Positions 3,921 through 14,434 of a stretch of 64,000 nucleotides of DNA are shown here, one piece after another. The position numbers and the translations under genes were made by a program. The DNA lies in contig BTWA01000012.1 in assembly GCA_045863295.1 (NCBI GenBank), positions 86,633 through 150,632 of the forward strand, in the 5' to 3' direction. Below the pieces are notes generated by a model that saw nothing but the letters and a program-made list of their open reading frames with translations, was not told the origin of the DNA and did no database searches. The stretch comes from Candidatus Hydrogenedentota bacterium (GTDB taxonomy: Bacteria > Hydrogenedentota > Hydrogenedentia > Hydrogenedentales > SLHB01). Numbering within the stretch: the stretch's first letter is position 1; every line of letters begins with the position of its first letter.

Positions 3921-4091
3921 TCATAAAGGCTGCTTTGGCACAAGTACTTGCGCTGATGTCGCGTTTCCGTCTTCAACATTCGTTGACACTTTGGGGAGAT
4001 ACGATTCAGGCGGTGCGTTCGTTGAAGTGAAGACGAGGAAGAGAAGGGCTAAAAGCAATGCAAGGCCTATCCGCTTTGCCAAAGTGTTCAT
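3921..4091 (-). CDS. Putative small exported/membrane peptide (56 aa)
   Basis: ATG at 4091 gives MNTLAKRIGLALLLALLFLVFTST..., a basic N-region followed by a hydrophobic helix. Starts 38 bp after the sulfotransferase stop on the same strand; RBS is weak. Confidence 0.4.
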   Translation of the reverse strand: MNTLAKRIGLALLLALLFLVFTSTNAPPESYLPKVSTNVEDGNATSAQVLVPKQPL

Positions 4092-4129
4092 GAGAACAGT
4101 AATCCCTGAACCCTCGGCAGAGTTGCCGT

Positions 4130-5143
4130 CTATTCGCGCAACAAAACATCGCAGACCAGACGGGCCTTGCTCAGCACTCCCCGGAACATGCCGCCCTTCT
4201 GCGCCTGCGCACGGAGCCCCACGATGAGTTTGCGTTGCAGCCGGTAGCGCGTGAGGCCTGATGCGCGGCTGGCGACGCTCTTTCCTTGGACCTGTTCCAG
4301 TGCTTCCCAGAAACTCGCCGGAGGATATCCCCAGACGGTCAGATCCTCTTCGGCCAGCCGGTCGACAATAGCCCGCATCATCGAGAGTTTCAACGGATCG
4401 GCCACCAATTCCGATGCCCACTTTTCGATAGATCCGGTCTGTGGCCGATCGTGCTGCGTGACGCCAATGGGATCTCCCAGACCGTCTGAGTGCGCGGTTC
4501 CCGGCCGTTCGCCGTAATTGACCATCGCCGGTTCATACGGCACGCCGATGTAGGCACAGATTTCCTGCATCCAAAGTTCGGGTTTCCGAACCAAATCCTC
4601 GTACCGCACATGAAATACTTGCGGATAGTCCCTCCGCAGAAAGTCCGCGATGGCGGGAACATACCGGTTCAACAAAGGATTGTAATTCTGTGCAGCCTGA
4701 TAATTTCCATCAAAAAACGAATTGGCATACGATGAAAATACCGCCAATGGATGCCGAGTCAGTACAACGTACTTCGCATCCGGAAACACCTTGGCGATAA
4801 ACGGCAAAATGAGCGCGTACGCAGGCGTCTTGTCCAGGCAAATGTGCTTTCCGCTCCCCGCAATATACGCTCCATATAGAGTGTCGCAATATGCGCGGCA
4901 TGCTTTCCAATAGTCTGATTCGCCACCGGGCAACTTGCTGATGAATAGCTTTTGTGATTCCGCCGCCAGTACATGGTCATATGGGGCTTTGTCCACGTTG
5001 GCCCATACCCCCAAGTGCGCCAACGGGGTCAGCAAGTGCGGCTCGGGGCCGCCATGAATAAGGGAATGGCCTTCCAGCATGCGTTCCAGCATCGTGCTCC
5101 CCGATCGAGGGGCACTTATCACGAAAACCATGGGAACACTCAT
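4130..5143 (-). CDS. PAPS-dependent sulfotransferase (Sulfotransfer_3-like)
   Basis: 5'-PSB loop 'APRSGSTML', 'DKTP', 3'-PB 'LTRHPLAVFSS', 'VRYEDLV'. Confidence 0.9.
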   Translation of the reverse strand: MSVPMVFVISAPRSGSTMLERMLEGHSLIHGGPEPHLLTPLAHLGVWANVDKAPYDHVLAAESQKLFISKLPGGESDYWKACRAYCDTLYGAYIAGSGKHICLDKTPAYALILPFIAKVFPDAKYVVLTRHPLAVFSSYANSFFDGNYQAAQNYNPLLNRYVPAIADFLRRDYPQVFHVRYEDLVRKPELWMQEICAYIGVPYEPAMVNYGERPGTAHSDGLGDPIGVTQHDRPQTGSIEKWASELVADPLKLSMMRAIVDRLAEEDLTVWGYPPASFWEALEQVQGKSVASRASGLTRYRLQRKLIVGLRAQAQKGGMFRGVLSKARLVCDVLLRE

Positions 5144-5345
5144 TGAATAAACGGCCCTTCCTAGTCGTCAACAGAGTAGCTGGAAGCGTAGTCACTGGGG
5201 CGAAGCATTTCAAATTGCACAGTGTTTCAATCGGCAGTGCAGAAGATCCCGTGGCTTTTGATATAGTCTGTCGCTTGTGACCGGAAAAGGCCATTGCCGA
5301 TCCGGGAGTCCTGGTAACTTCAAGCATTGAACGGGCGGATGTAGT

Positions 5346-8300
5346 GTGAAAAATGTAAAACGTGTCGTCGTCAAGGCCGCCGTGTTTGGACTAAAGCTGG
5401 CTGTCGTTGTAGGCCTCTTTGTGTTCATTTTCCGGCCAGAAACCTTTGGATTTCGCGCTGACCTCTTCAAGAATATTACTCCGTGGACGATTGTCGAGAC
5501 GTGCAAGCAACTCGATCCGGTCAACGTTCTTTTGTGGCTCGGCTTTGCTTCCATCGCCAAACTGACCGGAATAACCTGCGGTATTCTCCGGTGGAACCTT
5601 TTACTGAGAGGGCAGGGTCTCAAACTTCCTATGCTCTATTTGGCGAAATGTTGGTTCTGGGGGCGGGCCATTGGTTTGTTCCTCCCGGGCACCGTGGGAT
5701 TGGACGGATACAGGCTTGTCGAGTCGTCCACCTTCACGCGCGAACCCATTAAATGTACATCCGTCATCGCCGTGGAAAAGCTTACCGGGTTCATTGCATT
5801 GTTTGGTCTGGTCTTTTTGACGGTTCCACTGGGACTTCGGGTATTCAACTTCAATCTTGCCATGCTGACTCTGGTCCTACTCTGCCTCGCAGCATTCGTG
5901 TCGGTCACACTCATGTTGCTCATGAATCCACGAGTCATACAGGTATTGGCGGCAGCATTTCCCGTGCCAGCGCGTATCCGGGACAAAGTAAACAAGTTGG
6001 GCTTTGCCGTAACGGCCTACAGCGGTCAGCGCGCGAGATTGTTACTCGCTCTGTTGCTTGCCTTTGGCGTGCATCTTGGCATTTGTTTTATGTATTTCGG
6101 CACGGCCATGGCCATCAAAGCGCCAAACACATCGTTGCTGGATATTCTGTTTGCCAGCCCACTCGTGATTGTCGCCTCGGTTTTCGGACCCACAGTGAGT
6201 GGCGCGGGAGCCCGCGAACTTGTGTTTGGCGCGCTGCTTGGAGATAAGTCCGGCATGGCGAATGCCGTGCTGTTCGGCCATCTGGGGCTCTGGATTGGCG
6301 AAGTCATCCCTCTGATAGTTAGCCTTCCGCTGCTGCTCACGTCTACTCGTCCCAAACGCGACGTGTTACTGGAGGAAGTGGCAGACCTCCGTCATGCCAT
6401 TGATGAGGCGGATCAATCCGTTCACTTGCCCGAGGCCGACGTAATGCGTTATCGAAATACCATCCTGAGTACCTTGCTTGCTGGTCTTGCGGCTGGCGGA
6501 ATCGGCGGTGCATGCATCGGCTTTGTGGAAGCTTCCTGGGTAGCCAGCACATTGAGCGGCTTGTCCGAATTGGGTGCGTTCTGGTGGGGGACAATTGTCT
6601 ACGCCGTCCTATTTGGTGGACTCGGACTGGGGGTCGGTGCCGCACTGCTATTCTTCTATTTGATTGCCGACCGCCTGGGACCGGCTTCCGTTTCTTTTGG
6701 CATCACTTTGGGCACCATTCTAGCCGTGGGTGTCTTAATTATCGGCCGCTGGCGTTACCAGCGCGATGTGCTTATCGAACACGCCCTCAGCCGAAACGAA
6801 AACCTCGCTGTATTCGGCGCCGCATTGGCCGTCTTTGCCGTTGGATTTGCTGTTGGAGGAGGAATCGCATTCGCGTTGCGCAATCGTACACCTCTCTGGA
6901 GTAGAGCGCTCGCGACAGGTGCCCTCATCGCCGTAATTGCCGCCGCATTCTTTCGATCAGCCATGTACGTACCTGAGGCGGAACAACGGCAGTTTGATCC
7001 ACTGCCCTCGGCACAAGGCCCGAATATCATTCTCGTAGCTATCGACACACTTCGAGCGGATTACCTGCGCGCCTACCGTCCTGACGCCAAGGCCTACACG
7101 CCGAACATAGATGCGTTTTTGGGCGATAGCGTCTTGTTTGCCAGCAGTTTCGCGCAATCCTCATGGACCAAGGCTTCGTTCGGCACCATTTTTTCAGGAA
7201 TGCACCCCCAAGCCCACAAAGCAGTCACCAAAAGCGCCTCGTTGCCCAATGACGTCGAGACTCTGGCCGAAGGATTGTTTGCAGGAGGCTATTACACCCA
7301 GGGTTTCCCCAACAACGCCAACATCTTTAGTGTGTTCAACTACGGCCAGGGATTTGTCCAGTACAAAGACTTACTGCCTGACCGGTACTGCGGAGCCACT
7401 GAGTCGGCCGCCCGCCTTTCCCTGTATGAAGTCGTCCGGCGAGTCGTGGAAACTATAAACGCGAAAGTTCTTGGCGGACGCATTGTAATCAGCAACTTCT
7501 ATCAGCCGGGTGAAGTGATTACGAAAACCGCGTTGGAATGGATCGACGGAGACGAGCGTCCGGCCGGAGCACCATTCTACCTCTTCTTACACTACATGGA
7601 CCCGCACGATCCATTCCGGGATCCGGAAAGGCCTGGCAAAGGCTATGCACGTGTGCAACGTCCCAACCCCGATCCGGAAAAATTTCGCGAAGCGTTTATC
7701 CGGTCATACAACTATGAAATCGAATACCTGGATGAGCAACTGGGGAAATTGTTTCAAGGGCTGAAAGACAGGGGTATCTATGACGATGCTCTTATCGTGT
7801 TTACTAGCGACCATGGCGAAGAATTTTGTGAGCACGGAGGTTTTTGGCACGGGCTTAGTCTCTACGAAGAACAAATCCGGATCCCATTGGCCATAAAGCT
7901 CCCTGGCAACAGGCACGCCGGCGCTCGACAGACACAAATCGCAAGACATATCGACATCGCGCCAACGATTCTACTTACCGCTGGCCTGCAGCCCTTGCCC
8001 GCCATGCAGGGAGAGCCTCTATTTTCCTTTGACGGCAATCCCGTGGATAACAGCGTGTCCGAGACCTACGCCCACCTCGATTTCGAAGGAATCCAGCTGA
8101 AGGCCGTCCGGACTCCGGAATCGAAGCTAATTACGTCCAACGAAAACAAAAGGAAGTATGCCCCGATTGAACTGTTTGATCTCCAAACGGATCCGGCTGA
8201 GAAAAACAACTTGGCAGGCAAAAACGTACCGTCGGAACAACAACTGCTGGACCTGCTGGATCAATTTCAGGAAACTGTCTCAATCGTAGGTGTCGCAAAC

Positions 8301-8366
8301 GAACAGACAACGACGGTGGACAAGGCGACAGAAGAAGCGCTTCGCAGTATTGGCTATGGCGAATAA
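5346..8366 (+). CDS. Fusion of LPG-synthase-TM/flippase-like domain, extra TM bundle and C-terminal sulfatase-fold (alkaline phosphatase superfamily) domain
   Basis: N-terminal 'RWNLLL...FLPGTVGLDGYR...VEKLTG...GAGARE' pattern typical of LPG_synthase_TM/UPF0104. C-terminal 'PNIILVAIDTLRAD', 'QSSWTKAS', 'YMDPHDP', 'SDHGE', 'ELFDLQTDPAE', 'LRSIGY'. Confidence 0.85.
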   Translation: MKNVKRVVVKAAVFGLKLAVVVGLFVFIFRPETFGFRADLFKNITPWTIVETCKQLDPVNVLLWLGFASIAKLTGITCGILRWNLLLRGQGLKLPMLYLAKCWFWGRAIGLFLPGTVGLDGYRLVESSTFTREPIKCTSVIAVEKLTGFIALFGLVFLTVPLGLRVFNFNLAMLTLVLLCLAAFVSVTLMLLMNPRVIQVLAAAFPVPARIRDKVNKLGFAVTAYSGQRARLLLALLLAFGVHLGICFMYFGTAMAIKAPNTSLLDILFASPLVIVASVFGPTVSGAGARELVFGALLGDKSGMANAVLFGHLGLWIGEVIPLIVSLPLLLTSTRPKRDVLLEEVADLRHAIDEADQSVHLPEADVMRYRNTILSTLLAGLAAGGIGGACIGFVEASWVASTLSGLSELGAFWWGTIVYAVLFGGLGLGVGAALLFFYLIADRLGPASVSFGITLGTILAVGVLIIGRWRYQRDVLIEHALSRNENLAVFGAALAVFAVGFAVGGGIAFALRNRTPLWSRALATGALIAVIAAAFFRSAMYVPEAEQRQFDPLPSAQGPNIILVAIDTLRADYLRAYRPDAKAYTPNIDAFLGDSVLFASSFAQSSWTKASFGTIFSGMHPQAHKAVTKSASLPNDVETLAEGLFAGGYYTQGFPNNANIFSVFNYGQGFVQYKDLLPDRYCGATESAARLSLYEVVRRVVETINAKVLGGRIVISNFYQPGEVITKTALEWIDGDERPAGAPFYLFLHYMDPHDPFRDPERPGKGYARVQRPNPDPEKFREAFIRSYNYEIEYLDEQLGKLFQGLKDRGIYDDALIVFTSDHGEEFCEHGGFWHGLSLYEEQIRIPLAIKLPGNRHAGARQTQIARHIDIAPTILLTAGLQPLPAMQGEPLFSFDGNPVDNSVSETYAHLDFEGIQLKAVRTPESKLITSNENKRKYAPIELFDLQTDPAEKNNLAGKNVPSEQQLLDLLDQFQETVSIVGVANEQTTTVDKATEEALRSIGYGE

Positions 8367-8695: not shown

Positions 8696-10405
8696 ATGCA
8701 GAAATTTAGCAAGCCGGTAGTTTTTTGCACCTTGGTACTGTTGGCCCTTGTCAGCAGTGGGTGCCCGTTCCTTACGCCCCCGAATTATCTTCCATCATTC
8801 CTCGTCACTCCTGACCTGCTCGTTTTCGGGAAAGGCGTGAATACGTTGACCTTTACCGTGGCCAAGTCGTGGACTTCCACCACGGTACCGCAGTTCACGG
8901 TCACTCCAAACCAGCCTTGGATATCGGTTACTCCGACTACCGGAACCAGCAGCGGGCCAAGCAATAAGGTTACAATTACAGTTACCTTGAATCGGTCTCT
9001 GTTGGGCGGGGGAGAGAATTCCGGCCAGATTGTCGTTTCAGCGCCCGGTGTCGCTCAGACAGTGGTTGACGTTACCGCGGACTCCGTACTTTCGGCCAAC
9101 TTCGTTGCCGACAAGACTAGCGCGGCGGTGAACGACACTATTCAGTTTACCGACCTGTCCTTGATCACGCCCGAATCTGGACCAATCATCGCGTGGGAAT
9201 GGGATTTCGGTGATGGTAGCCAGAGCACCCAGCGCCACCCTCGCCATGAATATGCTCTGCCCGGCCTGTACTCGGTTGAATTGACTGTTTCCACCGCGAC
9301 TGTGACCAATACTCGCCGTCGAAGCAACTATATTCTGGTCACCGGACAGAAACCGATAGCGTCTTTTACCGCCACGCCTCGCACAATCGATTCCGGTGAT
9401 TCGGTGCAATTTACGGATTTGTCCGTGCCAGGATCTTCGCCCATTATTTCCTGGCTGTGGGATTTCGGCGACGGAGGCAACAGCACGCTCCAGAATCCGT
9501 CACATATCTATAGCGCCTTTGCAATCTATACAACCTACACGCTGTATAATGTGACACTGACAGTGTCCAATATCATTGGCTCGAATTCGAGACTGGAACC
9601 CAACTTCATCCAAGTGAATCACACCACGTCTAAGGCTCAATTTGGAGCAAACCCAACTGAGCCGGCAGACGGAGAGACCGTGTTGTTCCAAGATATGTCG
9701 GAAGTCCCGGAATCGGCAACCACAGTCAAATATCTTTGGGAATTTGGTGACGGTGGGGTCAGCACGCTTCAGAATCCCACTCATACGTATGCTTCAACTG
9801 GGGCCCCTGCTGCCTACGACGTAAAACTTACAGTCGAAGCAGACGGCGTGTCCAGTTCGGTGGTCAAGAGCAGCTTCATCAAGACGGGTCCGGACGCTGC
9901 GAAGTTGGCCCAGCATGTAAACGCGGACGATCCAAGTTACTCGTTCAGTATTGTTGAAACGATATCGGCATCGACCTATACGGCCAGTTTGGTTCAATTC
10001 ACTTCGCAGAAATGGCCAACTCCGGCTGGAAACGAATGGACTCATTGGCTTGTGCTCGTGGAACCAGCCAACCGCACGTTGGACACGGCGTTGCTGTATA
10101 TTGGCGAGGCCGAAGGCGAGCCTGACGTGGAAAAGCAATACGTAGATGCCGCCATTGCGGCCCAGACTCCTGTGGCGGTGGTATACCAAGTACCCAATGA
10201 GCCGAACGACGGCTCGGAAGATCTGGTATACCCGATGGTCAAGAGTATCGTTGCGGCCATGGATACCGTTGACACCCTTGTGGCCTCTGATCCGGTGGAC
10301 GGTTACATCATCAGCGGCAATGACTTACCGCTCTGGACCACCAGTCTCATCGGCGATTATGGGGACGCCCGAGTCAAAGGGGTCGAGGAGAATGTCGCAC
10401 CCTGA
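8696..10405 (+). CDS. Lipoprotein with BACON-like domain, three PKD domains and a degenerate C-terminal PqaA-like domain
   Basis: Lipobox 'LVSSGC'; 'QPWISVTPTTG' (BACON-like); three PKD motifs (WEWDFGDG, WLWDFGDG, YLWEFGDG); C-terminal 'FTSQKW..WTHWL..QVPNEP..YPMVKS..AMDTV'. Confidence 0.8.
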   Translation: MQKFSKPVVFCTLVLLALVSSGCPFLTPPNYLPSFLVTPDLLVFGKGVNTLTFTVAKSWTSTTVPQFTVTPNQPWISVTPTTGTSSGPSNKVTITVTLNRSLLGGGENSGQIVVSAPGVAQTVVDVTADSVLSANFVADKTSAAVNDTIQFTDLSLITPESGPIIAWEWDFGDGSQSTQRHPRHEYALPGLYSVELTVSTATVTNTRRRSNYILVTGQKPIASFTATPRTIDSGDSVQFTDLSVPGSSPIISWLWDFGDGGNSTLQNPSHIYSAFAIYTTYTLYNVTLTVSNIIGSNSRLEPNFIQVNHTTSKAQFGANPTEPADGETVLFQDMSEVPESATTVKYLWEFGDGGVSTLQNPTHTYASTGAPAAYDVKLTVEADGVSSSVVKSSFIKTGPDAAKLAQHVNADDPSYSFSIVETISASTYTASLVQFTSQKWPTPAGNEWTHWLVLVEPANRTLDTALLYIGEAEGEPDVEKQYVDAAIAAQTPVAVVYQVPNEPNDGSEDLVYPMVKSIVAAMDTVDTLVASDPVDGYIISGNDLPLWTTSLIGDYGDARVKGVEENVAP

Positions 10406-10550
10406 CGCGACCGAGAATTGAATTTGACGGGGGCAGGTGATCAATGAACCTGCCCCCGTTGTTTTTGCGATTGGTGTGGGAATCCCCGGTTGCAACGTGA
10501 ACTGCCCTCGTGGAATACTCCCCCTATCTGGTGACTTGTCCATCACGGAA

Positions 10551-12995
10551 ATGGAATCTGCCGTGAGATACCTTTTGATAGCAGCCTGTGGCTTCCTCAT
10601 AGTCACTGCGTCGTATGCAAAGCCTCCTGAATCGGTAAGCTACAACGCTCACATTAAGCCCATATTAGCAAACAAGTGCTTCGCCTGCCATGGGCCCGAC
10701 GCCAAGGCAAGGAAAGCAACACTTCGTCTGGATACCCAAGAGGGATCAAGATCCGCCCTACCTTCAGGGCTTAAGGCAATCGTGCCCGGCCGCCCGGAGG
10801 AATCGGAGATGCTGCGGCGCATCATGCACGCTAACCCCGAAATTAAAATGCCTCCCGCCGAATTTGACAAGCCGGTTACGGAACAGGAGAAGGCGTTACT
10901 TTCCGAGTGGATTCGATTAGGTGGGGAATACGAGCAGCATTGGGCATTCATCCCTCCGTTAAGGCATGTACCACCGGGGCTGGAAAATGGGAATCCAGTC
11001 GACGCCTTTGTCCGCTCCAAGCTCGCGATAGAGGGAATTGGGCCTTCTCCTGAAGCCGACAGATCCGTGTTACTTCGAAGGGTCTACCTGGATATCGTCG
11101 GCTTGCCGCCACCCGAGGAAAAGTTGAATCAATACTTGGCTGACCAGGACCCGGGCGCGTACGAGCGGATCGTCGACGAGTTGCTTGCGTCACCCCATTT
11201 TGGCGAACGTTGGGGGCGCCATTGGCTTGATGCCGCGCGATACGCCGATTCCAATGGATACAGCATCGACGGACCCCGCACAATTTGGCCCTATCGCGAC
11301 TGGGTCATTAACGCAATTAATTCGAATATGCCGTTCGACCAGTTTGTTACGGAACAACTTGCTGGCGACTTGCTGGAGGATGCCACCCGGGAAAACCGCA
11401 TTGCCACAGGGTTCAACCGCAATACCATGATTAATCAGGAAGGCGGAGTGGACAAGGAAGAATTCCGCATTGAGGCGGTATTCGACCGGGTAAACACGGC
11501 CGGCACGGTCTTTCTTGGTCTGACCATGGCCTGCGCGAGGTGTCACGATCACAAATATGATCCCATTTCGCAGCGCGAGTACTTCGAGTTATTCGCGTTC
11601 TTCAACAGCGACGACGAAGTTGACTTGCCGCTTCCAACGACGCAACAAGCCGCAATAAAGGAGAAAATTGATGCGCGGGTTGCGGAGGCCAACGATACCC
11701 TCAGTTCCTATCTCGCCGAAGCAGACAAGGCGGCCTTGCCAACTTGGGAAGAGTCCCTGACACTCAAGGAAATACGCACGTTCAGTCCCCAATTGCAAGA
11801 GGCGCTCTACACCCAGCCTACGGGGCGTACTCCTGACCAGGTGACACTTGTACGCGACCAGTTTAAAAAAACCGATCCCGGTGCTCAGGCGATTGTCTCG
11901 GAAATCGAGAAGATCCGGGCAGAAACCCCTGACATTATTACCACCCTTGCATTGACAAATCGTAAAGATATTCGCCCTACGCATCTCTTCGTACAAGGCG
12001 ACTTCACACGAAAGGCGGAGGAAGTCTTCTCCAGCGTGCCCGATGTGTTCGGAGATGACAAGACCAACCGCAAAAACCGCCTGGATTTGGCTCAATGGCT
12101 GGTCGATCGCAATAATCCGTTGACGGCGCGGGTTACCGTGAACCGGTATTGGCAGGCGCTTTTTGGCAAGGGCCTTGTCGAAACTGAAAATGATTTCGGC
12201 ACGCAGGGATCTCCCCCAACACACCCCGAGCTCCTGGACTGGCTTGCCGTGGAGTTTATGGAGGGCGGTTGGGATGTCAAGGCACTAGTGCGATTAATTT
12301 GCACGTCGCAAACGTATCGGCAATCGTCGAATGCACGCCCGGACCTGGCGGAGAAGGATCCCACAAACAGGCTTCTTGCCCGGCAGAATCGGTTGCGCTT
12401 GGAGGCCGAGATCGTTCGCGACATAGCGTTGGCCTCGTCGGGCCTGATGCACGACAAAGTAGGCGGTCCCAGTGTATTTCCACCCCAGCCCGATGGCGTC
12501 ATGGATTTAGGACAGGTTAAGCGTGAATGGACTCCGAGCGGTGGACCAGATCGGTACCGTCGTGGCATGTATACGCATTTCTGGCGTGCCACTCCCCATC
12601 CCGGGTTGATGGTCTTCGATGCGCCGGACGCGCAATTCGCGTGCACAAGGCGTGTGCGCTCGAATACTCCGCTACAGGCGTTGACCTTGCTCAACGACGA
12701 AGCGCATTTTGAGTGTGCTCGCGCCTTGGCCCGGCAAACCTTTTTTTGGGAAGGCGCCTCCGACACCGATCGTATACGGCGGATGACCAGGATTTGCTTG
12801 GGCAGGGAGCCGAACGCCGTCGAGACCGAGTTGATGCTCACCCTACTGGAGCGCCAAAGAAATCGCTACTCAAATGCGCCCGATCAAGCCCGGGCGGTTT
12901 TTGCCACCGATGCGGCCATCGCAGCGGAAGGCGCCGCTTGGACCATGGTGGCCCGCACCATCTTAAACTTGGACGAGTTCATTACACGGGAATAG
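10551..12995 (+). CDS. PSCyt1-DUF1549(PSCyt2)-DUF1553(PSD1) planctomycete-type cytochrome c domain protein
   Basis: Signal peptide; CxxCH motifs CFACH and CARCH; 'HWAFIPP', 'GERWGRHWLDAARYADS', 'RVTVNRYW', 'PPTHPELLDWLA', 'NTPLQALTLLN', 'NLDEFITRE'. Start ATG 10551 (or GTG 10563). Confidence 0.9.
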   Translation: MESAVRYLLIAACGFLIVTASYAKPPESVSYNAHIKPILANKCFACHGPDAKARKATLRLDTQEGSRSALPSGLKAIVPGRPEESEMLRRIMHANPEIKMPPAEFDKPVTEQEKALLSEWIRLGGEYEQHWAFIPPLRHVPPGLENGNPVDAFVRSKLAIEGIGPSPEADRSVLLRRVYLDIVGLPPPEEKLNQYLADQDPGAYERIVDELLASPHFGERWGRHWLDAARYADSNGYSIDGPRTIWPYRDWVINAINSNMPFDQFVTEQLAGDLLEDATRENRIATGFNRNTMINQEGGVDKEEFRIEAVFDRVNTAGTVFLGLTMACARCHDHKYDPISQREYFELFAFFNSDDEVDLPLPTTQQAAIKEKIDARVAEANDTLSSYLAEADKAALPTWEESLTLKEIRTFSPQLQEALYTQPTGRTPDQVTLVRDQFKKTDPGAQAIVSEIEKIRAETPDIITTLALTNRKDIRPTHLFVQGDFTRKAEEVFSSVPDVFGDDKTNRKNRLDLAQWLVDRNNPLTARVTVNRYWQALFGKGLVETENDFGTQGSPPTHPELLDWLAVEFMEGGWDVKALVRLICTSQTYRQSSNARPDLAEKDPTNRLLARQNRLRLEAEIVRDIALASSGLMHDKVGGPSVFPPQPDGVMDLGQVKREWTPSGGPDRYRRGMYTHFWRATPHPGLMVFDAPDAQFACTRRVRSNTPLQALTLLNDEAHFECARALARQTFFWEGASDTDRIRRMTRICLGREPNAVETELMLTLLERQRNRYSNAPDQARAVFATDAAIAAEGAAWTMVARTILNLDEFITRE

Positions 12996-13000
12996 TCTGC

Positions 13001-14434
13001 ATGCACGTCGATCAGGCCAAAATGTTACACCAGATTACTCGCCGCCATTTTTTCCGGGATTGCGGCGTGGGTCTGGGTTCCATCGCATTGGCCAATATCG
13101 TGGGATCTCCAAAGTCCGGCGCGGCACCGTTTCTAGCCAACCTGCACCATGCGCCAAGGGCAAAGAACGTCATTTTTCTGTTCATGGCCGGTGGGCCAAG
13201 CCAACTGGAACTGTTTGATTATAAGCCGGTATTGCAGAAGTACAACGGACAGCCCATTCCTGCTTCCTATATGGAAGGCAAACGCTTTGCCTTTATGGAT
13301 ACGTTCGCAAAAGAAACCCCCAAACTACTGGGCACCCGGCGTCAATTCAAACAACATGGTCAATGCGGTGCGTGGGTATCGGAGTGTCTGCCTCATACAG
13401 CCTCCATCGTAGATGAAATTGCCTTCATAAAGACCATTGCTACTGACCAGCCGAATCACGCGCCGGCGAAGATTTTCATGAATACCGGTTCCGCGCAATT
13501 TGGCAGGCCCAGCATGGGTGCCTGGATCGATTATGGTATCGGAAGCGAATCGAGCAGTCTGCCCGGCTTCATCGTGCTTCAATCCGGTCCACGTGGGCCT
13601 CGCGGTGGAGCGCCGCTTTGGGGAAGCGGCTTTTTACCCAGCGCGCATCAGGGAGTTCCCCTCCGGTCGACAGACGATCCCATTCTAAACCTTAGCAACC
13701 CCGACGGCGTGAGCGAAGGCGCGCAACGCGATGTTGTGGACACCGTAAACGCCTTGAATCGAGAACATTTGGAGGTGACAGGCGATTCCGAGATCGCGGC
13801 GCGAATTTCCTCCTACGAAATGGCGTTCCGGATGCAGACCAGCGGGCCGGAATTGCTCGACTTTTCTGGTGAATCCGATGTGATAATGAATGCCTACGGG
13901 GCTAAGCGAGGCGAGCCTTCATTTGCCTATAATTGCATTCTCGCCCGGCGGCTTGTGGAGCGAGGCGTACGGTTCGTACAGCTTTATCACACCAATTGGG
14001 ATCACCACGGAAGCAAGACCGAAAATCTGACGACTCACTTGGATGAAGTCTGCCACGACGTGGACCAGGCAAGTGCGGCGCTGGTGATGGACTTAAAGCA
14101 ACGCGGTCTGCTTGAAGATACGCTGGTCATTTGGGGTGGCGAGTTTGGCAGGACGCCGATGGGCGAAGTCCGCGACACAATTGGTCGCAATCATCATATA
14201 CAGTGTTCCACTATGTGGATGGCGGGCGGAGGTGTAAAATCCGGTTTCACACTCGGCGAAACCGATGAACTTGGATTCAACCCCGCAGTCGATCCCGTTC
14301 ACGTGCATGATATCCACGCAACGATTCTCCATATCCTGGGAGTCGATCACCTCAAATTGACCTACCGGTTTCAAGGCCGGGAGTTCAGACTGACCGATGT
14401 GGCCGGAAACGTCTTGCATCCGCTTATCGCCTGA
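13001..14434 (+). CDS. DUF1501 domain protein with Tat-like signal
   Basis: 'TRRHFFRDCG' twin-arginine motif; 'AKNVIFLFMAGGPSQLELFDYKP', 'ARRLVERGVRFVQ', 'WDHH', 'GEFGRTP'. Starts 5 bp after the DUF1553 stop. Confidence 0.9.
   Translation: MHVDQAKMLHQITRRHFFRDCGVGLGSIALANIVGSPKSGAAPFLANLHHAPRAKNVIFLFMAGGPSQLELFDYKPVLQKYNGQPIPASYMEGKRFAFMDTFAKETPKLLGTRRQFKQHGQCGAWVSECLPHTASIVDEIAFIKTIATDQPNHAPAKIFMNTGSAQFGRPSMGAWIDYGIGSESSSLPGFIVLQSGPRGPRGGAPLWGSGFLPSAHQGVPLRSTDDPILNLSNPDGVSEGAQRDVVDTVNALNREHLEVTGDSEIAARISSYEMAFRMQTSGPELLDFSGESDVIMNAYGAKRGEPSFAYNCILARRLVERGVRFVQLYHTNWDHHGSKTENLTTHLDEVCHDVDQASAALVMDLKQRGLLEDTLVIWGGEFGRTPMGEVRDTIGRNHHIQCSTMWMAGGGVKSGFTLGETDELGFNPAVDPVHVHDIHATILHILGVDHLKLTYRFQGREFRLTDVAGNVLHPLIA

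Follow-up and report, generated by a model that had tools for sequence, protein, structure and literature searches.

The stretch analysed here, hereafter the window, comprises 64,000 nucleotides (C12:86633-150632) of the 6.3-Mb genome of a Candidatus Hydrogenedentota bacterium (genome label G000; genomes, contigs, loci and families are labelled G, C, L and f). Near its start, a gene for a sulfotransferase dependent on 3'-phosphoadenosine 5'-phosphosulfate (PAPS) and a gene for a 1006-residue protein joining a flippase-like domain to a sulfatase-fold domain are both present and divergently transcribed with 202 bp between them, as described in an earlier note on this DNA. That note had proposed that a lipid carrier is sulfated inside the cell and flipped, and that the group is then transferred to a surface glycan or protein. 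Comparison with 135 genomes of the phylum reveals that the sulfotransferase-fusion pair belongs to a larger module with a family 4 glycosyltransferase (GT4) and two Thr-bearing enzymes of the PF01663 family, and that genomic links with sat and cysC, the genes of ATP sulfurylase and adenosine 5'-phosphosulfate (APS) kinase, tie this module to activated sulfate. The features of the locus, in window positions, are the following.

4130-5143, minus strand: PAPS-dependent sulfotransferase of 337 aa (PF13469, E value 7e-35, 121.7 bits against a cut-off of 27)
4136-4189, minus strand: basic amphipathic C-terminal helix of the sulfotransferase, residues 319-336 (hydrophobic moment 0.57, net charge +3)
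4730-4756, minus strand: RHPLAVFSS, sulfotransferase residues 130-138 (R130, P132 and S138 invariant in 44 homologues)
5093-5116, minus strand: SAPRSGST loop, sulfotransferase residues 10-17 (P12, R13, S14, G15 and T17 invariant in 44 aligned homologues)
5144-5345, no strand: divergent intergenic region of 202 bp between the open reading frames (ORFs) of the sulfotransferase and the fusion
5346-8366, plus strand: fusion of a flippase, five transmembrane (TM) helices and a Thr-nucleophile alkaline-phosphatase-fold domain, 1006 aa
5370-6353, plus strand: MprF subdomain-1-like flippase domain by predicted fold, fusion residues 9-336
6429-6965, plus strand: five-helix membrane anchor, fusion residues ~362-540 (conserved E395, Y419 and R470/R473/D474)
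7014-8300, plus strand: alkaline-phosphatase-superfamily catalytic domain, fusion residues ~557-985, predicted periplasmic
7167-7169, plus strand: Thr608, predicted nucleophile (Thr in 120/120 close homologues and 41/41 rows of the distant set)
7809-7850, plus strand: D822-H823...H835 metal/catalytic motif (invariant in both homologue sets)

The sulfotransferase combines a PF13469 domain above its cut-off with the invariant residues of both PAPS motifs, namely the SAPRSGST loop, which we take to be the 5'-phosphosulfate-binding loop (5'-PSB), and RHPLAVFSS, presumably the 3'-phosphate-binding motif (3'-PB). No clear transmembrane stretch or signal peptide was found in the protein, its best 19-residue hydropathy (1.48) falling on an internal segment, which agrees with the cytoplasmic location previously assigned to it; it is probably soluble and peripheral to the membrane. 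Its C-terminal tail is conserved among 120 homologues, and the amphipathic helix that it carries, which is not the highest-scoring amphipathic window of the protein, is a candidate membrane anchor. The closest solved relatives are the sulfotransferase domains of CurM and of olefin synthase, together with the tyrosylprotein sulfotransferases, and the protein lies outside the named NoeE subfamily (91 bits against a cut-off of 500). Homologues are present in 120 of the 135 phylum genomes, mostly as a single full-length match of 53-70% identity; a sulfotransferase of the same family, P0399, is 49% identical, well below this usual range, and its N-terminal extension looks like a mis-called start. 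None of 97 sulfotransferase matches is fused to a flippase or Thr domain, an absence of little weight. Separate from these, weak sulfotransferase-domain matches of about 33% identity occur in G094, G096, G097, G101-G103, G105-G108, G116 and G072; the ORFs that hold them are mostly 1,800-2,660 aa long and, by their size, are possibly polyketide synthases of the CurM/olefin-synthase type.

The fusion matches PF03706 over residues 16-299 (E value 1e-11) and PF00884 over residues 559-880 (E value 3e-39). The flippase-like and sulfatase-fold parts are thus those seen earlier, but the protein is not a two-domain fusion, as a third part, a PbgA-like five-helix anchor (~362-540), lies between them. 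AlphaFold models were obtained for the whole protein (predicted local distance difference test (pLDDT) 81, predicted template modelling score (pTM) 0.63) and for residues 1-548 (pLDDT 88, pTM 0.78). The flippase domain aligns with residues 28-338 of the MprF structure 6lvf (VIA-align Z 24.5, root-mean-square deviation (rmsd) 3.3, 293 residues aligned) and the top six Foldseek matches are all MprF; residue-level profile mapping of this domain onto MprF gave chance matches only. Five hydrophobic helices follow at residues 373-540, and residues 362-510 find their best match in the TM domain of PbgA/YejM (Z 8.5, rmsd 3.7, 141 aligned), a value that is moderate for a helical bundle. When anchor and catalytic domain are taken together, 452 residues can be aligned with full-length PbgA (Z 32.9, rmsd 14.8, the domains being hinged).

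In the passages cited on MprF (PMC8131360), this protein is built of 12 long helices plus two pairs that span half the membrane, TM1-TM8 and the translocation core lie in subdomain 1, and the synthase is cytoplasmic. The same helix parity in the fusion places the linker 332-372 inside and, after five further helices, the catalytic domain outside. The density of Lys and Arg across 120 homologues is 0.14-0.32 per residue in the inside loops and 0.03-0.11 in the outside loops, with one exception at 0.15, the loop with the conserved R470/R473/D474, whose predicted position is next to the catalytic domain. Apart from this loop, helix parity and charge bias both suggest that the catalytic domain faces outside, as the proposal of a trans-envelope transfer supposes.

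The hexapeptide S-W-T-K-A-S lies exactly where it had been reported, at 7161-7178 (fusion residues 606-611), and in alignments with solved sulfatases its Thr608 falls on the catalytic Cys/Ser, confirming that Thr occupies the nucleophile site. D567, T608, H754, D822, H823 and H835 are invariant in 120/120 close homologues, as in each of the 41 rows that form a distant set made of the query and 40 proteins of at least 880 aa among 150 listed. According to the passages cited of a survey of sulfatases (PMC5066984), formylglycine sulfatases are marked by Cys51, Arg55 and Lys113, by (C/S)xPxR and by G-Y-x-T-x3-G-K-W-H, and Thr-bearing PF00884 proteins cannot be assumed to be sulfatases. In the fusion, the first motif is altered by T608 (120/120 close homologues) and F612 (119/120), and the second reads GYYTQGFPNNA, with N656 at the Lys113 position in 120/120. 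With Thr, Phe and Asn in place of Cys51, Arg55 and Lys113, the domain is not a formylglycine sulfatase, as had been argued, and reading the fusion as a plain arylsulfatase was rejected on these signatures. The loss of Pro and Arg from the motif, to which the earlier note had also pointed, stands for Arg, whose replacement by Phe612 is general, but is partly strain-specific for Pro: this position is Ala in 87/120 and Pro in 33/120 close homologues, and Pro in 40/41 rows of the distant set. Genes with formylglycine-generating enzyme (FGE) domains are also present in the own genome. Of its 52 PF00884 matches, 49 were examined; at least 33 of these are Cys-type sulfatases, and Thr-type domains, found in 6, are not rare.

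The catalytic domain has the alkaline-phosphatase-superfamily fold, with 6hr5 of the sulfatase branch giving Z 40.6 (rmsd 2.6, 351 aligned). It also matches PbgA, LtaP, LtaS (29.6), EptA (24.9), EptC and BcsG with Z of 22-33. The structural comparison that was expected to set LtaS/EptA against arylsulfatases does return transferases, with lower scores than the sulfatase branch. The domain keeps the C-terminal subdomain of that branch, and the solved structures closest to it in sequence are those of hydrolases (sulfatases and phosphonate monoester hydrolases). It shares with LtaS, EptA and PbgA a five-TM anchor ahead of a presumably external domain and a Thr nucleophile with metal residues, and remains far below the NCBIfam cut-offs of LtaS (33 bits vs 970), YejM (26 vs 825) and EptA (23 vs 561). 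Residues 814-837 align gap-free to the catalytic domain of MCR-1/MCR-2 in a weak short-query match (E 0.14-0.5), through which H835 falls on the MCR-1 His that we take to be H478. The subdomain-1 fold of MprF is present and its aminoacyl-phosphatidylglycerol synthase domain is not, the C-terminal part being PF00884. Judging from the models, the fusion is predicted to work like an MprF flippase coupled to an LtaS/EptA-type transferase, being a member of neither family nor of the S1 sulfatases.

Across the phylum, the N-terminal domain of the fusion occurs in 119 of the 135 genomes, essentially as a single copy; 114 genomes have both genes and 10 have neither. The two are separated by no more than 5 kb in 37 of these 114 genomes, representing 7 of 13 families, and the close pairs are arranged divergently (32), in tandem downstream (4) or in tandem upstream (1); the genes are on different contigs in 75/114. 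Among 61 loci with flanks of up to 8 kb, the sulfotransferase is the commonest neighbour of the fusion (24 loci), the next being a UDP-glucose dehydrogenase/epimerase pair (12). Since no neighbour is more widespread, the pairing goes beyond chance, and its conservation, on which the earlier note depended, is borne out within the phylum. A Fisher p value of 5e-8 for the pairing and an independence expectation of 0.003 for the five-gene set were set aside as overstated, related genomes not being independent. In families f10 and f11, sulfatase-fold genes resembling the Thr-type paralogues of the own genome stand between or beside the two genes (L181:8183-10828 in G076, L043, L061 and L077).

Fusion and sulfotransferase share their distribution, as had been anticipated, but this picture is incomplete, two other genes being more general partners of the fusion. 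A metagenome scan with distant fusions, for which Myxococcota is the one organism group named among 20 proteins looked up, yielded 79 loci; an exact look-up recovered 0 of 10 locus-derived proteins. The 25 with a catalytic domain scoring at least 440 bits were taken as orthologous; many are short, and co-occurrence outside the phylum was judged from such loci. A quickly built tree groups them with the fusions in a single clade (SH-like approximate likelihood ratio test (SH-aLRT) 97), a value that is only indicative as the groups are partly defined by the fusion-profile score. A cytoplasmic PF01663 Thr-enzyme, NPPb, is encoded directly downstream in 10 of these 25 loci and is usually followed by GT4, and a second PF01663 protein, NPPc, which has a signal peptide where complete, often precedes the fusion orthologue. 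The most general operon partners of the fusion are thus NPPb and the GT4 glycosyltransferase, and not the sulfotransferase.

Within the phylum, the counts for the five genes are close to each other (fusion 119, sulfotransferase 120, NPPb 122, NPPc 119 and GT4 116 of 135 genomes). The complete set is found in 98 genomes, and every member is missing from six (G119, G121-G125); APS kinase is retained in four of these six. NPPb lies next to GT4 in 102/113 genomes, and the fusion adjoins NPPb-GT4 in G007 and NPPc in G091. The module is dispersed in the own genome, with NPPb-GT4 at C10:1847-4706, NPPc at C18:32403-34460 and a further PF01663 Thr-enzyme paralogue, NPPa, at C3:40952-42391. One metagenome locus, in an operon that also contains fusion, NPPb and GT4 genes, encodes a protein (L103:5949-7403) with arylsulfotransferase scores (PF14269/PF05935) above cut-off and no single passing stretch, which may only be an NHL propeller. 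A C-terminal L-x-x-(L/I)-G-Y tail, at window 8340-8363 in the fusion, is common to the fusion, NPPb, other Thr-type sulfatase-fold proteins and an APS kinase (L136:18854-19396); its carriers are found in L102, L107, L112 and L136 and on C10, C7, C33 and C59 of the own genome, on both predicted sides of the membrane.

The links to sulfate activation take several forms. APS kinase adjoins the sulfotransferase in 12/114 genomes, with the order cysC-sulfotransferase-fusion in G003, G004 and G006. In the own genome, and likewise in 28 of the 30 best loci, NPPa comes immediately after ATP sulfurylase (G000:C3:39661-42391, that is L171:6662-9392, and L186-L215 being the ATP sulfurylase-NPPa loci), and one Atlas cluster of 61 proteins consists of ATP sulfurylase fused to PF01663. 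In G001 (L216, G001:C111; family f14) and G002 (L217, G002:C4; f15), which are without fusion and sulfotransferase, sat and cysC are clustered with two or three PF01663 genes. L136 brings together an APS kinase gene, three genes of the PF01663 family and four that encode Thr-type sulfatase-fold proteins, and L165 holds a sulfotransferase, a Thr-type enzyme and NPPa in tandem. NPPa is also encoded a few genes upstream of the fusion orthologue in L097 and L102. There, a CobW-type metallochaperone GTPase directly follows it (L097:5371-6318, by Pfam; L102:1954-2913, by similarity), a position that fits metal delivery to these enzymes. NPPa is a candidate sulfotransferase or enzyme handling PAPS or 3'-phosphoadenosine 5'-phosphate (PAP).

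PAPS is cytoplasmic, and sulfation outside the inner membrane of prokaryotes is poorly explained, while relays from lipid donors are known for phosphoglycerol and phosphoethanolamine. We tentatively favour an envelope-sulfation pathway, a possibility of real weight, in which a glycolipid would be sulfated inside and flipped, and the sulfate passed through Thr608 to a surface acceptor. The PAPS would come from ATP sulfurylase and APS kinase, whose genes are present and whose biochemistry is established. GT4 would build a glycolipid on the inner leaflet, to be sulfated by the sulfotransferase, by the cytoplasmic NPPb co-transcribed with GT4, or by both. The MprF-type domain, identified by its predicted fold, would flip the sulfated lipid, and the PbgA/LtaS-type anchor would present the head group to the periplasmic domain. 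The metal-activated Thr608, whose surrounding residues are conserved, could take the sulfate as a covalent intermediate and hand it to a surface glycan, glycolipid or protein. More speculatively, secreted NPPc and other Thr-type sulfatase-fold proteins may draw on the same donor. This relay is suggested because the architecture of anchor and catalytic domain matches that of lipid-donor transferases, as in the alignment with PbgA, because the flippase part matches subdomain 1 of MprF, the site of the translocation core, and because the five genes co-occur and the adjacency of sulfotransferase and fusion spans 7 families and three orientations. The genomic links of the sulfotransferase with APS kinase and of PF01663 proteins with ATP sulfurylase point the same way, and Agl30/Agl31 and hexSDF, described below, serve as precedents. 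Still more tentatively, we propose that lipid-mediated sulfate relay exists in bacteria and that the many Thr-type 'sulfatases' and the PF01663 'phosphodiesterases' encoded beside sat and cysC would form a large class of mis-annotated sulfotransferases.

Several observations weigh against this pathway. The active site has F612 and N656 where sulfatases have Arg55 and Lys113, and its D-H...H set is that of phospho-transferases; it looks like a phosphodiester-type transferase site, which favours transfer and argues somewhat against sulfate as the group transferred. The sulfotransferase is missing from all 25 orthologous loci of the metagenome scan, many of them short, and is never adjacent to the fusion in families f3 (0/20) and f8 (0/8); some fusion orthologues (L102, L107) have no flippase domain in the same protein. 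NPPa, present in 64/135 genomes of four families only, does not share the distribution of the module and may simply recycle PAP, so that its links would indicate a sulfate context rather than sulfate transfer by the fusion. The joint absence of the module genes may reflect few loss events, one or two, among related genomes. Two known systems bear on the pathway in the same direction: the HexF flippase is dispensable for glycolipid synthesis in C. difficile, as stated in the passages cited (PMC10128005), and those cited on the archaeal proteins Agl30/Agl31 (PMC11980604), with no match for PAPS or threonine, name neither donor nor nucleophile.

Other explanations were considered, the first of which concerns the chemistry of the outer domain. 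The sulfated glycolipid could be both the cargo and the acceptor, sulfate being added in the cytoplasm only, and the Thr608 domain outside could add phosphoglycerol or phosphoethanolamine from a phospholipid in the manner of LtaP/EptA, the product priming or decorating an anionic surface polymer. The EptA/MCR-like D822-H823-H835 set, the lost cationic residues and the structural matches, which include LtaP, LtaS, PbgA, EptA, EptC and BcsG, are in line with such a function, and a similar logic with glycosyltransferases (LafA/B), a membrane protein (LafC) and LtaP operates in Listeria according to the passages cited (PMC2764115). The sulfatase branch nevertheless gives a higher Z (up to 40.6) than EptA or LtaS and its C-terminal subdomain is kept, and phospho-group transfer alone leaves the recurrence of PF01663 and Thr-type genes beside ATP sulfurylase, APS kinase and sulfotransferases unexplained; we regard it as unlikely, yet as the main rival of the relay. 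If the outer domain were instead a hydrolase ensuring the turnover of the flipped lipid, or a lipid sensor like PbgA, its nearest solved relatives by sequence and the best fold match of the anchor would be expected, the main role of PbgA being lipopolysaccharide sensing. A flippase fused to an enzyme destroying its own cargo would however be uneconomical, and the invariant metal ligands and Thr608 fit catalysis through a covalent intermediate, which makes this option improbable.

Doubt may also be cast on the pairing itself. The ancestral NPPc-fusion-NPPb-GT4 set could make a non-sulfated envelope glycoconjugate, with the sulfotransferase as an addition of Hydrogenedentota that decorates the product of the module or a related glycan and is adjacent through shared regulation. 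Its absence from all 25 orthologous metagenome loci, where NPPb is present in 10, and the spread of the NPPb-adjacent members over several subclades of the orthologue clade speak for this scenario; it is distinctly unlikely in view of the sulfate-activation links of these same loci (NPPa in L097 and L102) and of P0399, a same-family sulfotransferase whose 49% identity is well below the phylum range. It is highly improbable that sulfotransferase and fusion are core genes without functional relation, kept together by inherited gene order. Both are near-universal in the phylum, so that co-occurrence is expected, and they are on different contigs in most genomes having both (75/114), but their adjacency survives rearrangement into three orientations and insertions across 7 families, no other neighbour is as widespread, and both are jointly absent from genomes that keep APS kinase.

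The envelope-sulfation pathway can be set beside several described systems. MprF (PDB 6lvf, 7duw, 9j8q) and the fusion have the same flippase subdomain 1 fold and both join a flippase to a lipid-acting enzyme; the fusion lacks subdomain 2 and the cytoplasmic aminoacyl-tRNA synthase domain, and its outward-facing enzyme would act after flipping rather than before it. With LtaS/LtaP, EptA/MCR and PbgA (YejM) it shares the five-helix anchor, the position of the Thr nucleophile and the D-H...H metal site, and differs from them in having its own flippase, the sulfatase-branch C-terminal subdomain and links with sulfate-activation genes. The S1 sulfatases have the same fold and PF00884 domain, unlike the fusion in its Thr/Phe/Asn set, membrane anchor and flippase. 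In the caprazamycin relay, a PAPS sulfotransferase, Cpz8, reportedly loads a small carrier and a second, PAPS-independent enzyme, Cpz4, is said to pass the sulfate on; this relay, in contrast to the module, would use a soluble carrier and a beta-propeller His enzyme with no membrane crossing.

Passages of the study on Halobacterium salinarum Agl30 and Agl31 (PMC11980604) describe these sulfatase-annotated proteins of the alkaline-phosphatase superfamily, one membrane-bound by a single pass and the other soluble, as needed for glycan sulfation and sufficient in vivo, since they confer it on Haloferax, with a dolichol-linked glycan as proposed substrate. Compared by description, they resemble the fusion in their superfamily and in surface-glycan sulfation, and differ in the absence of a flippase fusion. 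In the passages cited, hexSDF of C. difficile ties a glycosyltransferase and an MprF-like flippase to a glycolipid (PMC10128005) and Listeria couples LafA/B/C to LtaP (PMC2764115). Both resemble the module in applying a glycosyltransferase, an MprF-like or eight-TM membrane protein and a modifying enzyme to a glycolipid, but are encoded by separate genes and involve no sulfate. LafC is a PF03706 protein, a point outside the passages cited.

As a defined set of five genes, the module is present in single copy in most genomes of the phylum and as an operon elsewhere, and Thr608 makes the question directly testable. If correct, the proposed relay would suggest a possible mechanism and donor for Agl30/Agl31, which are sulfatase-fold sulfotransferases, and would be a bacterial sulfate counterpart of the EptA/LtaS phospholipid-donor system. 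The 'arylsulfatase' labels, through which the degradation of sulfated polysaccharides is overestimated in these genomes, would be corrected as well. Even if the outer domain transfers a phospho-group, the module would represent an undescribed, phylum-wide envelope glycolipid pathway. No description of the fusion, the module or a lipid-mediated sulfate relay was found in the literature, few subscription papers being covered, and the passages cited of a Hydrogenedentota genome paper mention sulfotransferase genes only in general terms (PMC10866078).

Some minor features complete the locus. A promoter scan returned 4 sigma-70-like sites, against 2.8 +/- 1.6 in shuffles, none of them in the 202-bp intergenic region. 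The left boundary previously given to the system, 3921, belongs to a separate ORF of 56 codons with a hydrophobic N-terminus (3921-4091, minus strand) just downstream of the sulfotransferase, which itself ends at 4130; this ORF was rejected as a part of the system, having no homologue among the examined loci or elsewhere in the genome. On the other side, a probable lipoprotein with a BACON domain, three PKD domains and a partial PhoPQ-related domain is encoded at 8696-10405 (plus strand), followed at 10437-14434 (plus strand) by a planctomycete-type PSCyt1/DUF1549/DUF1553 protein and then a DUF1501 protein.

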